A program made the translations under genes and the position numbers. From NCBI GenBank assembly GCA_008632985.1, contig QPGO01000029.1:632874-669539 (forward strand): DNA of 36,666 nt, given 5' to 3'. The notes beneath the pieces are model-generated. The model ran no database searches, was not told the DNA's origin, and saw only the letters and a list, made by a program, of their open reading frames with translations. Source of the stretch: Psammoneis japonica. Lineage: Eukaryota. Positions 2,935 through 18,370 of the stretch are shown here, piece after piece. Numbering within the stretch: position 1 is the stretch's first letter; each line of letters begins with the position of its first letter.

Positions 2935-3420
2935 AACACAGGGCCCAATGAGTCAACTTCTTGCCGTGGTTGTTTTAAACTGGAAACCACTGCAACAAGG
3001 CTGCAGCCCTCTCTCCATTTTTCTTTGTGAGACATGTTTTCAGTCAGCTTGAGGGATGAAATGGTGGTGCAGCACTTGCTTGTGATGTTTTCATGTCATG
3101 CTGCTTTCTCCCAAGGTGAAAGCGCTTTTGTGATCTCTTTTCCAGATCTCTGCTTCAGCAAAACTCTGCTGCAGGTGCACAAAATCAGTCTACAGCACAG
3201 GGTTTTGCCACGTCGCTGCCAGAGCATGAGTTTTTCAAATGAAGACGTGACGGCGCGCGACAGGCTGAGGTCCTCAGCTGTCCAATCATGCCATCTTTGT
3301 TAGTTCGCTCTTCCTCTATTGCAGCACTCTAGAGAGGAACTCTAGAGCTACTACTGCCGTACTCGAGAGCGAGTGGTCTGAAACAGAAGCTTCGTGCTTG
3401 GTGTTAAAATGATTATTAGT

Positions 3421-11769: not shown

Positions 11770-12689
11770 ATGCACTTGCATAGAGTTTGGTTTGCCTATT
11801 GTTTCGTTAGTATTGGCTTTGCGTTCAGCGAGGCATTTCAAGTATCGGCAAGACTGCGTGGCAGGTCAAGTGTGCAAGTCAAGGGATTTCTTCGACCGAG
11901 AATTGCACTTGGGGCCTCGGTGAATGGTGAAGGAGCTCAGGGATTTGATAGAAAATTGGATGAATCGAAGAAGCGATGGGTTGTAGTTGTGGACGACGAA
12001 GAATCGATTCGTCAGGCTCTGGAAAAGTTCCTCTCTGCCAAGGGATATCACGTTTCGACGTGTGCCGATGGTGCGTCGGCCTTGAACGTTTGTCGTAGCA
12101 AAGTACTAGCCAAAAATACCGTTGGAGATCCTTCCGTCCCAGATGCAATTGTCAGTGATATTCGAATGCCAGGGATGGATGGTCTCGAATTTCTACGCCG
12201 AGTCCGTCGTGATGAAAATCTCGTTGGTATTCCGGTTGTGTTGCTTACCGCAAAGGATTGACACAAGATCGAATCGCCGGGTATAAAGCAGGAGCTGACG
12301 TTTATTTGCCAAAACCATTCGATCCAGAAGAGCTCGTTACCGTGATTGACAATTCCATTACTCGTCACGAACAACTAAAGGGTGAAAATGTCCGAGTTGA
12401 CGACTTGCAAAAAGATCTTGATGAAATCAAGTTCTTGCTCCTCCAAAAAGGCGGTGGCGGCGTTGGAAACGGGTTTGTCGCCATTACCAATGTTTTCTTA
12501 ACTGCAGACGAACGCGTTGTGTTGGAACTTTTATGCAAGGGCCTCATGACAAAGGAGATTGCGGCAGAGACTCATCTCTCGACAAGGCGAGTGGAGCAGC
12601 TCTTGACGAGCATGTTTCGAAAAGCAGAAGTGAGCAATCGTACTGAACTGGTGAGATGGGCTTTGTCGACGGGAAATGTAAATATATAG
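11770..12689 (+). CDS. ycf29: Plastid-targeted NarL/LuxR-family response regulator (Ycf29-like); one-base loss near 12255
   Basis: Signal peptide plus SEAF motif. Receiver domain VVDDEESIR...VSDIRMPGMDG...LLTAK(G)LTQDRIAGYKAGADVYLPKPFDPEEL. LuxR HTH LTADERVVLELLCKGLMTKEIAAETHLSTRRVE...NRTELVRWAL. Confidence 0.85.
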
Positions 12690-12973: not shown

Positions 12974-13704
12974 TGCTCGGATGTTCACGTTTAGACCAAC
13001 TGCGCAGCCTAGATTGAGTCAAAGCATTTTTATTTCAAATTTGTTGAAACCAAAGGTTTGGGTAGAGCATACAGCAAAGGCACAGGTTGGTGCTCTCCTG
13101 GTTTTGATTGAGACAGTTTGCTCCAAGAGACTTCCTCCTGAAAAGCCGCTTGCTGAAACTCTAGCAACACACCTTTGAAATCCAACAGAATGTGAGAAAG
13201 AGAAGCAGGGACAAGATAAAAACACTGACAGAGCTCAAAAATCTGATCTTGAACAAAGTGCTGCTCTCTGGGAATGTCGCGCTTGTTGTTCATGACAGAC
13301 GGCAGGGTTGGAAAACCAAGCAAGGAGGTGGCACTGGGGCAGAGCAGTGTCAGATGGAGAATTCACAATTTGTGGCACATGCATGCCAGAGTCAGCTGCT
13401 GCTGGAAGCAGGTTGCTGCCAGCTGCTTCTTGTCAATTTTGTGGAGGTTGTCACACGCCACTTTCTCAATCAAATGGCACAGGCAGGCAAAGTGTTGCGC
13501 CACATGTCACCTGCCTTGGCACCGCTGTTTTTTTTTTGCTGCTCTCAGCCCCTCCAGACTGCATGGCTGGCCTCTCTTTTTCATCATCACAGGCTTTAGA
13601 AACAAGTTTTTGTGCTCCTCCCACTGGCCACAACTTTCTTTTTGCTGTCATGTCGGCGCTCTCAGGCACAGTCAGTCTCATCTTGTCTTTTTTGTGTGTG
13701 GTCG

Positions 13705-13728
13705 TCTCTCTCTCTCTCTCTCTCTCTC
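13705..13728. repeat. (TC)12 microsatellite
   Basis: Direct reading. Confidence 0.95.
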
Positions 13729-14633
13729 TGTGCACTTGACAATTGCTGGGGACTCATCGCTGGGGAGGGCACGTGGCTGGAGGGAGGCATTTGGCTTCCT
13801 GGGCTGGCGCAACATCTTTTGCAATGCATTTGCTGGCAGAAGCTTGTTTGCATGATCAAGGCTGGTGATGGGTTGCATGGTTGGCATCTCTTTCTCATCA
13901 TTGCAGGCTTTGGAAACCTGCTTTCATCTCTTCCCCCCACTGGGTGCTGTGCTCTTTTTCTTGGTGGCGCCGTGTCATTCTCCCACTTGGGCTGGGATCT
14001 CCATCAGGTTGTGAGCCACACTTGTGCTTGGTGCAAGTGGGGCCCCTCTGCTGACCACCAACACTCTGAAAACACTCTTTGACTGCCTCATTGACAGCAA
14101 CAAAGACCGTTTTTTGCACACTCTTTCTCGTTTTTGTGGCCGCAACATCTCTGCCACAAGCCGGCAAATCTTGCGCCATCGTTGTTTGCATCCGCTGCTG
14201 TTGCTGCAGCTCTTGGCATCAACTCCACATGCGTGCTTTTGTGCATGCAAGTGCCGACACCAACAGCCCCATGTGCGCCACGGCTCACAGACCACTGCAT
14301 GACCATGGCACCGGCGAACAGCACCCGTTCCAAAACGGCAGCATCTTGGCGGGAACGCACATCATCTCTTCAAGCAGCCACAAGGCAGCAGCAATGATGC
14401 ACCACCACACTGTTCACTGGCAGAACAGTGCTCCCATTCTCAATGGGCCCGCCATTCTCCTGGTGTGTTGGGGTGTCAGTGGCGCCACATCGCTCCTGCT
14501 TGGGTTGGAGTCTCTGCCACTTTTTGCTTTTTGCCGCTGTGCAGTTGCTTGCTTCTCTTCTTGTGTTCTTGTCTGAGGACTCTGGCACACATTTTGTTGA
14601 CAACAGCAAAAGAAAAAAGATCACAAAAACAGC

Positions 14634-14640
14634 AAAAAAA
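14634..14640 (-). terminator. RNA polymerase III terminator (T7) of tRNA-Leu
   Basis: Seven T on the minus strand, 3 nt after the discriminator base. Confidence 0.8.
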
Positions 14641-14643
14641 GGT

Positions 14644-14822
14644 TGACATCGGCAGGATTTGAACCTGCGCCAACGAAGACTGCAGCCTAAATGCAGCGCC
14701 TGATCGAAATTAAGGGGCGGATGATTTGTGAGCGGATGTGAACGAGTGGTCTGGTGCGTATGTAATTAGTGGTCGTTCGGTAAGGTGATGTCACTGACCT
14801 TAGACCACTCGGCCACGATGTC
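14644..14822 (-). tRNA. trnL-UAG: tRNA-Leu(UAG); exons 14822-14799 and 14699-14644, split in the D-arm by a 99-nt insertion
   Basis: Joined exons give GACATCG TG GCCG AGTGGTCTA AGGC G CTGCA TTTAGGC TGCAG TCTTCGTTGGC GCAGG TTCAAAT CCTGC CGATGTC A (80 nt). Perfect 7-bp acceptor, 5-bp anticodon and 5-bp T stems. A box TGGCCGAGTGG, B box GGTTCAAATCC, anticodon TAG at 14689-14687, discriminator A. Confidence 0.93.
14700..14798 (-). other. 99-nt GT-AG intron-like insertion in the tRNA-Leu D-arm
   Basis: AAG|GTCAGT 5' end, GCTCAC branch-like motif about 30 nt before the 3' end, TTTCGATCAG|G 3' end. Removal restores the D-stem exactly. Confidence 0.8.
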
Positions 14823-15178
14823 GATAACGGTTGGCGTGGTTTTTTGGTATTTGATACGTAGAAAAGCGGGATTTGGCGCAATCAGCTCAAAGCGAGCGCG
14901 TCAGTCTTGAATGAGTCATCAGCCCAACCGACGTACGATCCGTCATACTGAAACTTAGTATGTAGAAGATTACGTAACGTTCATACCAGGATTTTGGAAT
15001 TTCGTATTTCGTGGCGGGAGCTTGTTTTGGCGTCATCGAAAATCCAGATCAGGTCAATCAATCAGCTTGAATGACACACTGAACAAGAGGGAGGACTAAG
15101 GACGCTCAACACTGACTTCTCTTCATAGGACTTGCATCCTTAGCTCACAATTAGAATAGAAAAACGCCCTTTTTCGCA

Positions 15179-15757
15179 ATGCGTGCCTTCCTTTTGACTT
15201 TCCTGTTTTCGGTGTTCGGTCAACTGATCCCGATAGTGTCTTGCTTCTCTGCTCCAAACGTCGAAAACGGAGCGTCAGTTGGATTCTCAAGAAGGGCTTT
15301 CTTCTCGGGTGCTTCGTCCCTTGTGGCTGCCGGGACCATTGCTACTCTTGCTCCATCTCGGGCAAATGCAGCTCCAGAGATTTTTAATACACCCGCAGGT
15401 GTCAAATACGCCGTCCTGAAGCAGCCATCGAAGAAGGGAGCTTCGCCTCTATCGGGGGATATCGTTGCGGTCGAGTACACTGGCTATCTGGCTGATGGAA
15501 CTATCTTTGACGCAACTCACTCCGAGGGAAAGAACAACGCTTTGCTCTTTCAGCTAGGATCAAACGCAGTCATTCCAGGATTGAACGATATGATCTCTCA
15601 AATGGAAGTGGGCCAAAAGGTCCAGGCGATTATCCCACCGAAATTGGCGTTTGCGGACAAGGGATTGTGCCTTGACGACGGAGAGTGCCTCATCAAGCCT
15701 GGTGCGACTCTAGTGTACGATGTTCTCTTGAAGAAGAGTTCCATTTCCCCTCCATAA
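15179..15757 (+). CDS. FKBP-type peptidyl-prolyl isomerase, predicted thylakoid lumen
   Basis: GDIVAVEYTGYLADGTIFD, VIPGL, IPPKLAF, IKPGATLVYDV. Signal peptide plus SCF, twin-arginine SRRAF and ANA cleavage motif. Confidence 0.92.
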   Translation: MRAFLLTFLFSVFGQLIPIVSCFSAPNVENGASVGFSRRAFFSGASSLVAAGTIATLAPSRANAAPEIFNTPAGVKYAVLKQPSKKGASPLSGDIVAVEYTGYLADGTIFDATHSEGKNNALLFQLGSNAVIPGLNDMISQMEVGQKVQAIIPPKLAFADKGLCLDDGECLIKPGATLVYDVLLKKSSISPP

Positions 15758-15945
15758 AAGGATTGTAGTGTGTCCAGCTATCAACTTCTGTTGCTAGAGG
15801 CGGATGACGAATAGTAATAATGGCCGCTTGAAGTTGAGTATTGTAATATTATTATAACCATACTGAGAATGCCAAAAAGTCATTGATTCCTTTTCTTTCT
15901 TAGCTTTGATTTTCCTTGTGTGGCTTCTATGGCTCTACTCTATCT

Positions 15946-18370
15946 TTACCAGCTGCCATGCTCGATACTAGGCTGTCGCTGGCGTTTGAGTACCTCGGTT
16001 CGAACCTCCCGGTGCGTCGACACGACACGCGGCGTATTCATAGCTTTTTCGTTTGCGCGAACAAGAGATCTAGATGGCGACAAGCTCATGTCTTGAAATC
16101 CCATTGTGCTGTCATCAGATTCTGGTGTTCCATTGTGGCTTTCCATAACGCTCTCATCGTCCGATAATGCGTCGCCGTCTAGGCTTTCCTCATCACTACT
16201 ATCGTCATTTTGAATGGGAACCACGTCATTCAAAGCATCGGGTTCCTCGATGCATCCCTCCCATTCTCTATAAAAGGAAAAATAAACCCATGCGATTGTC
16301 GCAGCAGGTACGGATCAAAGGGAAAAAACGAGTCCAAGGGATTTTACCACCGCCGAGTCCTCCCACGCCTTGAGCTCTTCGCTTCATGTCCAACGTGGCG
16401 GTCGTCGTAATGAGGGTGGCCTTTGACTTTTTTCGTAGTAAAGAAGTCATGCTTCGATCTTCCACAACAAGCTTGTCCAAAAGCTTGGGACTTAGCAGAT
16501 GGAACACGTGCGATACATGAAGAAATTCCCCGCGCACACTCTCCAAACAATATCGAAGTGGATCAAGATTATGGCGGCAAATTCTCTCCCATCTCTGTGG
16601 AGATATATCGACACAGAGTGGGTCAACCTTGACCGAGCCATCATCGTCCGTCATGGTATCCATAACATTGGATGAGTCGTCCCTCTCCACGACGGATTTG
16701 TAAAATTGAACAGCATCGCTTCCACGAAAGCACATAATGTAAAACTCAGCCTGACAGATGGTATAAAACAAGGGATGCGTGTCGCATTGTTCACGAGCGT
16801 CCGTGTGCTGTTGCTGCTGAATAGCCATTCCAGCCATGGAATCCAAATAGGCTTCACTCCAACGCAAAAGGGCGCAAAGACTCTCACAAACCGTTTCCGT
16901 GCAGACGTAGGAAGCCCTACTGACAAAGGAAGCCAAGTAGCATGCCGCACTCTGTCTCGTCACGGTGGCGCGATAACTGTCAAAGACAATCTCAATCAAC
17001 TTGGAGCAAAAGTCTCGATAGAGACCCTCCGAATCATGATGATGCGACGTTGTAACTGCTGCGCCGTCTACTACAAGTCTGCCGTCTGGAGATGAAGCAG
17101 AAGTATTAATACCCTTGACATCAAGTCCACAGACGTAGAAAATGACAAATTGAACAAATTTGGATCGGTGCGTTGTCAATACGGACGATTCAAATACGGG
17201 AGAAAGCATGGCAAAGATCAAGCTTGGTCGAAACGTTCCGTCTTGAGCCGACTCGTAAATGTGCTCAAAAAGAATATGCATCAGGCAATCCAACTTTGTT
17301 TGATCATATACCAAAACAAGAGAGAAAATGAGAGAATTAGACAAAAGAAATGCGTTCATTGAAATGATGGATCTTGTTCCGTTCACAATGCGTTACCTTA
17401 TCAGCCATCTCATCCACTTTTTTCTCAACGACATCCTTGTTTCGTGTTGGTCCGCCGACAATTCCAGGTCAAACACATCATGCTCGTCCGTCATTTCTTC
17501 TTCCATCGACACTTGACCTCCATCATCAATTTTGATTTCAACATCCATTTCAAGATACTTGTCAATGAGCAATTCCAAGATACTCCCATGTACGGAGGGA
17601 ACGTACTTGGCAACACGCAAACATTGTCGTGTATACCATTCCAATTCTTCTTTTGGTTTGTTGCGAAAGGGAAAGTGTGATGCCAGTACGGGAAAGACAT
17701 TGCCCATGGGAACGAGGCGTAGCAGGGTGGCAAGTGTCGCGTGCAATCGTGCTGTGCGTTCTTGTCCGCCTATAGTGGTGGTGGTTAACAGTTTCCATAT
17801 AGCATTCAATGCCGGAGTCAAAAAGACCGAATTGGCGCTCACCAAGGCCACGACCAAGTGTAAATGAGCCGTGGAGAGAGAATAGTCTTTGTACAGAGAC
17901 AAATCGTTCTTGTTGTTGCTGCTGTTGTTGGACGGTACTTTAGACTGTGGCGGTTCAAAGGGGTCCATTCGAAATATCAAGTGCACCAGCTGAGCATGTC
18001 GTTTGGGATCCCGCGTCAAATTGTTGAGCGTCGATCCAGCCGTGCGAAGCGCCACGAGCACTTTGAGAAGCATGGGAGGGTCGTCCCTCTTTCGAAGACA
18101 ATCCTGAATGGCACGATACCCCTGAGGCGGTCTGGTGTTTTCGGGATAGCACACGGCGCTCATGACAAATGCCTTGACGGGTTCGAGCTCTTGTGGCGAC
18201 AGCGCTTGGCACGGCGGGAGTACCATCATTGGCATGTTTGATGATGATTCGTCTACTAATGATTCAGACGCCTGATTTTCGGCTTGAGCATCCAACGAAG
18301 ACGTTCCTTCCTGATCCATTGACTCGGAAAAGTGCACACCGGGTGCACCTACCGTGGGCACCGCCATCAT
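15946..18370 (-). CDS. RRN3: RNA polymerase I initiation factor RRN3/TIF-IA; intron 17294-17396; apparent one-base losses near 17441, 16345 and 16272
   Basis: LEMDVEI, DEMADK|LDCLM, THRSKFVQFVIFY, RQSAACYLASFVSRA, FYTICQA.FYIMCFR, LDPLRYC, NPLDSFFPFDPYLL. Confidence 0.92.

Follow-up and report, generated by a model that had tools for sequence, protein, structure and literature searches.

The window analysed here is a stretch of 36,666 nt (36.7 kb) from Psammoneis japonica. It holds genes for a DEAD-box helicase, RagA/Gtr1, a response regulator plus LuxR, FKBP, RRN3 and RRP7, as well as for a GPN-loop GTPase, Gcd10, an M76 peptidase and ubiquitin-S27a, and is eukaryotic nuclear DNA. The best named relatives of the RagA-type open reading frame belong to pennate diatoms (Bacillariaceae, Nitzschia, Seminavis, Fistulifera; 62–71% identity). 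The subject of this study is a tRNA gene on the minus strand (14822–14644), located between the LuxR-type gene and the FKBP gene inside approximately 2.4 kb for which no Pfam match was found in 10 ORFs. The FKBP gene (15155–15757) is divergent from the tRNA gene, which sits upstream of it. Two features of the surroundings were recorded in passing. At 12216–12261 of the plus strand, the response-regulator and LuxR-type frames overlap and are linked by a one-base frame change (LLTAKD-stop, then GLTQDRIAGY in the next frame) with nothing intron-like between them; either an error of sequencing, a gene with a frameshift or a pseudogene accounts for this. Between about 12700 and 14600, nearly 2 kb show overlapping open frames on both strands and CT-rich low-complexity stretches, and 10 ORFs gave no Pfam match. 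A D-arm-like match at 3370–3380 was inspected as well and is not a tRNA.

The gene is a tRNA-Leu(UAG) gene in two parts; all its coordinates refer to the minus strand. Exon 1 (14822–14799, 24 nt) consists of the 5' strand of the acceptor stem, positions 8–9, the 5' strand of the D-stem and the D-loop, and ends with GGTCTAAG (AAG). A 99-nt insert, the putative intron, follows (14798–14700, GTCAGT...GATCAG). Exon 2 (14699–14644, 56 nt) begins with GCGCTGCA and contributes the remainder of the D-stem, the anticodon arm with the anticodon TAG (14689–14687), the variable arm, the T arm, the 3' strand of the acceptor stem and the discriminator A. On direct reading, exon 1 contains TGGCCGAGTGG (14815–14805) and exon 2 GGTTCAAATCC (14665–14655), which we take to be A-box-like and B-box-like, respectively, by their match to the consensus sequences; a promoter function of the two is putative. 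Three nucleotides (ACC) past the end of the gene there is a run of seven T (14640–14634) which resembles a Pol III terminator.

When the halves are joined by their coordinates, ARAGORN accepts them as a tRNA-Leu(tag) of 80 nt. The acceptor stem of this tRNA has 7 bp, the anticodon and T stems have 5 bp each, and together with the long variable arm, the Leu anticodon and discriminator A these are the features of a class II cytosolic tRNA-Leu. The initial annotation, made from the letters alone, had described a clean cloverleaf with both promoter boxes and the seven-T terminator, and this description holds for the joined tRNA and for the box-like sequences and T run as read directly. It had also assigned the insert to the 3' strand of the D-stem and not to 37/38, which is confirmed: in the GT-AG register the insertion site is at tRNA positions 23/24, outside the canonical 37/38 of the anticodon loop. 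Because AGG occurs at both junctions, the boundaries can slide, as had been pointed out, and four registers (−2 to +1) yield the same product. For the whole window ARAGORN reported 0 tRNAs and Rfam, at gathering score, 0 families; with its intron option, ARAGORN forced a tRNA-Lys of poor quality whose anticodon stem was mismatched. Thus, the gene is missed by standard scanners, just as had been expected. The interruption of the tRNA-Leu(UAG) gene is thus confirmed, and the results given below show the same split again in Leu tRNA genes of distant marine algae.

The insert has a GC content of 0.48 and T runs of at most 3. Behind the exon sequence AAG it starts with the 5' splice-site-like GTCAGT (14798–14793), and it ends with the 3' splice-site-like GATCAG (14705–14700), followed by an exon G. 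The GT...AG ends and the CTCAC about 30 nt from the end, both noticed in the initial annotation, were found again as GTCAGT...ATCAG and as a candidate branch site CTCAC (14732–14728) whose A lies 29 nt before the end of the insert. The last 51 nt are AG-free up to the terminal AG, which is the first one past CTCAC. For a U2-type intron, a branch site would be expected 15–45 nt before the 3' end, with a stretch free of AG behind it. Six mRNA introns of the window, delimited by the continuity of conserved protein sequence, served as the local standard: three in the GPN gene (24107–24007, 23805–23716 and 23667–23571; 101, 90 and 97 nt) and one each in the DEAD-box gene (8927–8846, 82 nt), in RRN3 (17396–17294, 103 nt) and in the ubiquitin gene (30481–30232, 250 nt). 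In this order their 5' ends read GTACGT, GTACGC, GTACGT, GTAAGG, GTAACG and GTAAGT, and their 3' ends are YAG in four cases and AAG in two. An mRNA-intron-like size of the insert (82–103 nt) had been claimed, and with 99 nt it does agree with five of the six, while the sixth has 250 nt. The AG-free zone is likewise within the local range of 29–142 nt. At the 5' site, the insert agrees with the mRNA introns in having G at +5 and T at +6, whereas its C at +3, where all six have A, counts against a spliceosomal-type reading. The pyrimidine share of the last 25 nt is modest at 0.68 (0.44–0.68 in the local introns), and the longest T run is 3 versus 4–7. Both CTCAC (at −33, intron 2) and CTGAC (at −39) are indeed among the YTNAY motifs of the GPN1 introns, as had been stated, where it has to be considered that such branch motifs are short, common by chance and were chosen after the sequences had been inspected.

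Metagenomes were scanned for similar genes with a query consisting of the end of exon 1 plus GT, with two D-loop positions kept degenerate. As this pattern demanded a T after AAGG, the GT of the relatives is a matter of ascertainment and cannot be counted. At least 109 loci matched. Clean interrupted Leu genes, split at the same site after the D-arm AAG, make up at least 13 of these and form, among the matches listed, three further gene families. The first is a Leu(UAG) gene (loci L015 and L027) with an 81-nt insert, GTAAAG...AACAG, and CTAAC at −29. The second, Leu(AAG) (locus L020), has a 51-nt insert, GTTCGT...CTTAG, with TACTAAA. The third, Leu(CAG), is one gene in three haplotypes, found at 10 or more loci, with an insert of 134 or 137 nt, GTGCGT...ACCAG, which has CTGAC at −26/−30 or −29/−33 and a C/T-rich tract near its 3' end. 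At the chosen registers each family joins into a Leu tRNA of 80–82 nt (ARAGORN), and a T run stands directly after each gene. An insert of 54 nt, GTACGA...GTCAG, is present at the same D-arm site in a Leu(UAA)-like gene, L024 (tRNA start at 595, reverse strand of a metagenome contig). Past the variable arm this gene does not fold, and the acceptor 3' strand recurs about 290 nt further on; either the copy has decayed or the gene is interrupted at additional places. We excluded L024 from the family count because its downstream half gives no tRNA fold.

The inserts of different families show no sequence likeness and differ in length but share one common site, which is the pattern of retained introns and not that of copies of a mobile element. 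Counting the window gene and L024, and among the matches listed, YAG/G (the slash marking the junction) is found at the 3' end of five out of five independent inserts, while position +5 is G in four of them and position +6 is T in three. YTNAY motifs lie 26–33 nt from the 3' end in the window, in L015 and in the Leu(CAG) family. No AG occurs between the branch-like motif and the 3' end, save for AGs derived from an AAG in L020, where it is directly behind the branch motif, and in the Leu(CAG) family, where it is 4–5 nt behind. Related inserts that do not conserve GT, branch site and AG had been named beforehand as evidence against splicing of the mRNA type; this check turned out in favour of it, in that the three other families keep YAG ends and branch-like motifs, the GT being imposed by the pattern.

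An ORF beside L020 belongs to an ankyrin family, the named members of which all come from Bathycoccus prasinos. As this gene is of Bathycoccus type, the split is present in a green alga besides the diatom. The tRNA of L020 is found at 595–725, and the GC content of its 51-nt intron is 31%, against 43% for the locus. The outlier chromosome of mamiellophyte algae typically has small, AT-rich introns; if this applies here, the intron of L020 would match the local mRNA intron type. About 110–150 nt past the tRNA of L015/L027 there is a pyrimidine tract plus CAG, then an ATG, and about 60 nt further on GTAAGT, which looks like mRNA splice sites on the strand of the tRNA gene. The flanks of L015/L027 and of the Leu(CAG) family, covered for 600 nt on either side, contain no convincing ORFs.

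The remaining listed loci are mostly tRNA-derived repeats, bacterial tRNAs, uninterrupted Leu genes whose D-stem contains a G-U pair, or chance matches to coding sequence. L026, L069 and L097 were considered as interrupted Leu genes and rejected as coding sequence or degenerate fragments. Many of the loci L001–L109 (e.g., L005, L012, L039, L053) are repeats with a class II tRNA-like head and a conserved GT-rich tail. The head has the same D-arm, then GTAGGTCTGCGGCCGCTCGC..., and a T-arm; these elements look like tRNA-derived SINEs of one host group. Viral contigs were scanned without the forced T and gave 121 matches in 120 loci but no interrupted genes. In 118 of the 121 matches AAGG is followed by C, and the other three are one protein-coding sequence in three loci, uninterrupted. 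For this reason the scan of viral contigs carries no information on inserts without GT.

Could the window copy simply be dead? In this case an insertion, for example by an introner with a 3-nt AGG target duplication, would have inactivated it, and an intact copy elsewhere would supply the tRNA. Introners would be expected in many similar copies per genome, often together with terminal repeats and target duplications. AGG at both junctions resembles a target-site duplication, a sign which is ambiguous, and L016, from another organism, is an uninterrupted Leu(UAG) gene that has its acceptor stem and T arm in common with the window gene. Furthermore, eukaryotic tRNA genes with inserts in the D- or T-arm are deemed likely pseudogenes in reviews if other copies exist (PMC4090602). 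Yet both exons are undamaged, there is no second copy of the insert within the 36.7-kb window, and no terminal inverted repeats were seen at the insert by direct reading. Unrelated inserts occupy this very site in three further Leu genes that are intact, at least one of them from a distant lineage, and such a distribution fits retained introns better than repeated lethal insertions. The haplotypes of Leu(CAG) point in the same direction. Between two haplotype groups, the intron shows 6 substitutions and one 3-nt indel, and 5 of 90 upstream positions differ, whereas the exons are invariant (0 of 80) and the 50 nt downstream also show 0 differences. The changes within the intron spare GTGCGT, the CTGAC region and the last 8 nt. 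About four exon differences would have been expected against the 0 observed, which is weakly significant, and as there are also 0 in the 50 nt downstream, this amounts to modest support for constraint. A dead gene appears quite improbable to us.

The main alternative is that the insert is a real intron of a working gene which is cut by the tRNA splicing endonuclease plus ligase, or by another protein endonuclease, on the basis of a non-canonical structure, the GT...AG ends being incidental or left from the origin of the intron. Ectopic tRNA introns are reported to be cut in this way in nuclear genes of Cyanidioschyzon and Chondrus (PMC3978253, PMC13578239), and D- and T-arm introns are removed in the nucleomorph of Guillardia, many of them lacking a defined bulge-helix-bulge (BHB) (PMC3978253, PMC4090602). 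In relatives of the alga represented by L020, numerous long introns in tRNA genes as well as permuted tRNA genes have been reported; an endonuclease acting independently of the mature tRNA domain is implied by them. We examined the window precursor and those of four relatives, in the four tRNA-yielding registers each, for a BHB, defined as a 4-bp central helix between two 3-nt bulges (3-nt bulges only) with flanking helices. In none of the five precursors was a BHB found in any product-preserving register, either strictly or with one flanking helix, in line with the earlier remark that the intron ends form no such structure. In the best near-miss, three of the four pairs of the central helix form, with flanks of 0 and 1, and the near-misses differ by family. 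Among 837 cut-site pairs per precursor only scattered BHB hits were obtained, whose products are not tRNAs, and no hits at matching offsets were common to the families among the five precursors.

What the folding does favour is some structure in the window precursor, which is predicted to be more stable than shuffles (z = −2.36), a point on the side of the endonuclease. The main helix of this predicted fold is a 10-bp pairing: AGACCACTCG (14752–14743, minus strand, in the insert) is the perfect 10-nt complement of CGAGTGGTCT in the D-loop (14811–14802), an exon-intron complement reached by 0 of 500 shuffled introns. In the relatives, the search for such a complement gave nothing above chance. 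As the helix is missing there, it does not belong to any mechanism that the families share; the predicted pairing would then be a peculiarity of the window copy and perhaps a trace of its origin. As a separate observation, the reverse complement of insert positions 14743–14770 resembles tRNA positions 4–27 (compared with 14799–14819) at about 18 of 24 places by eye, so the insert may hold an inverted, decayed copy of the 5' part of a class II tRNA.

Cutting by an endonuclease leaves several regularities unexplained, namely the YAG ends in all five inserts, G at +5 in four of them, the AG-free 3' zones and the sizes of 51–137 nt, and the known nucleomorph introns without BHB measure just 3–24 nt. 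We judge it, on balance, fairly unlikely as the route by which this intron is removed. A self-splicing intron finds no counterpart in the data either: Rfam at gathering score matched no group I or group II core, and the insert has just 99 nt. Group I and group II introns have a conserved catalytic core and are usually longer than 200 nt. Judged by its ends, size and internal signals, the insert would seem to fit a spliceosomal intron better than any known type of tRNA intron.

We propose, as the reading that accounts for the largest share of the facts, that the locus is a working nuclear tRNA-Leu(UAG) gene with an mRNA-type (U2-type GT-AG) intron, a reading for which we see about an even chance. 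That Pol III transcribes the gene, that splicing takes place and that the spliceosome is its agent is what we infer from the features described. RNA polymerase III would start from the A box of exon 1 together with the B box of exon 2, pass the 99-nt intron, where T runs do not exceed 3, and stop at the seven T. The spliceosome would recognise AAG/GTCAGT, CTCAC as the branch site (with the A at −29) and the AG that comes next downstream (ATCAG/G); the intron would leave as a lariat with GGTCTAAG joined to GCGCTGCA, and RNase P, RNase Z and CCA addition would complete the tRNA. With the A box confined to exon 1 and the B box to exon 2, the interruption would leave the internal promoter intact. 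The insertion site AAG/G is a proto-splice site between the promoter boxes, one of three such sites in the tRNA, and splits neither box. The gene would be a member of a scattered class, with Leu(UAG), Leu(AAG) and Leu(CAG) genes elsewhere carrying unrelated introns at the identical site. Several points count against splicing of the mRNA type in a Pol III transcript. Spliceosome assembly is normally aided by a cap and by coupling to the polymerase, both of which are missing from such transcripts, the 5' exon has just 24 nt plus a leader, and the intron of L015 contains a TTTT run, which could be a Pol III stop in some organisms.

Some of these difficulties would be removed if the intron were spliceosomal but Pol II made a longer, capped transcript from which RNase P and RNase Z free the tRNA after splicing, as an uncapped transcript would then no longer have to be spliced. 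The TTTT run in the intron of L015/L027 speaks for this variant, and so does the pyrimidine tract plus CAG downstream of that gene, which resembles the 3' end of an mRNA intron. On the other side are the T runs directly after all four genes and the intact box-like sequences; the window gene is found in about 2.4 kb without Pfam match, between the LuxR-type gene and the divergent FKBP gene, and the T runs of its intron do not exceed 3 as against 4–7 in the local mRNA introns. Transcription by Pol II is, in our view, very improbable.

Transcript data were consulted as well. Two metatranscriptomes (X1 and X2) share 5–6% of sampled words with the window. In the interval 13500–16000 no contig of X2 could be aligned. 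Seven contigs of X1 (8 aligned pieces) did align there, all of them on the exons (14637–14701 and 14804–14822); they neither enter the intron or the flanks of this gene nor connect its two exons. One of them runs into the uninterrupted D-arm of a different Leu gene and another one is a different class II tRNA. These contigs are tRNAs of other organisms and give no evidence either way on the window gene.

It is taught that tRNA introns are of three kinds, those cut by protein endonucleases, group I introns and group II introns, and that spliceosomal introns belong to Pol II transcripts, apart from a few exceptions in snRNA and rDNA. More tentatively than for the single gene, we suggest a fourth class of tRNA introns: spliceosomal introns in Pol III-transcribed nuclear tRNA-Leu genes at AAG/G of the D-arm, between the A and B boxes, possibly extending from diatoms to mamiellophytes through ancient inheritance or repeated gain, and hidden from standard scanners. 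If this holds, some algal Leu isoacceptors which seem to be missing would in fact be present. The spliceosome would routinely work on a compactly folded Pol III transcript, such genes would offer a natural system for the finding of splice sites without cap or polymerase coupling, and the finding would bear on intron gain at proto-splice sites. As scanners in eukaryote mode look only in the anticodon loop and miss these genes, algal tRNA repertoires and inferences on codon reading may be incomplete. Even if the endonuclease route is the right one, BHB-less D-arm introns of 51–137 nt in ordinary nuclear genomes would still be new.

In the full-text literature, with most subscription journals and supplements outside the scope of the search, no description of a spliceosomal-type intron in a tRNA gene was found. 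A precedent is given by spliceosomal introns in genes of Pol III and in other non-coding RNA genes, which are recorded for U6, U2, U5, U1 and rDNA, with tRNA unlisted in the accessible text of that review (PMC5855946). A recent review of algal tRNA genes (2026) gives, as far as its accessible part goes, only canonical, BHB-type ectopic and permuted forms (PMC13578239). The accessible description of PlantRNA names tRNA introns of Phaeodactylum for other amino acids, with Leu unlisted (PMC3531208), and in that of tRNAscan-SE 2.0 the search for non-canonical introns is described for the archaeal mode only (PMC8450103). A GT-AG intron in the D-arm of a tRNA gene seems to be an undescribed type.

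Four known systems lend themselves to comparison. In Cyanidioschyzon merolae and Chondrus crispus, nuclear tRNA genes are likewise split outside 37/38, including in the D-arm, and are missed by scanners in eukaryote mode (PMC3728597, PMC3978253, PMC13578239). Their introns, however, are of the BHB type and cut by the endonuclease, whereas here none of five precursors has a BHB and the ends are GT...YAG. The nucleomorph of Guillardia theta shares with our genes inserts in the D- and T-arm, many without BHB (Kawach et al. 2005, via PMC4090602, PMC3978253), and their removal is reported there to have been shown by RT-PCR (PMC4090602, PMC3978253). These introns belong to a relict nucleus and are, with 3–24 nt, too short to be spliceosomal, in contrast to the 51–137 nt and the splice-site-like ends found here. 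The rDNA of ascomycetes provides an example of spliceosomal-type introns in a gene not transcribed by Pol II, scattered by lineage (Bhattacharya et al. 2000, via PMC5855946), but these are Pol I genes of lichen-forming fungi, with no tRNA among them and no single site used across distant phyla. Finally, the U6 snRNA genes of Schizosaccharomyces pombe and other fungi contain mRNA-type introns (Tani and Ohshima 1989, 1991, via PMC5855946). U6 differs in that it is located in the spliceosome's active site and that its introns are put down to reverse splicing into a neighbour, while a tRNA is no component of the spliceosome. What the U6 gene of S. pombe has in common with the tRNA-Leu gene described here is a short GT-AG intron with a branch site, a candidate one in the tRNA gene, within the gene of a highly structured small RNA that has a Pol III internal promoter.
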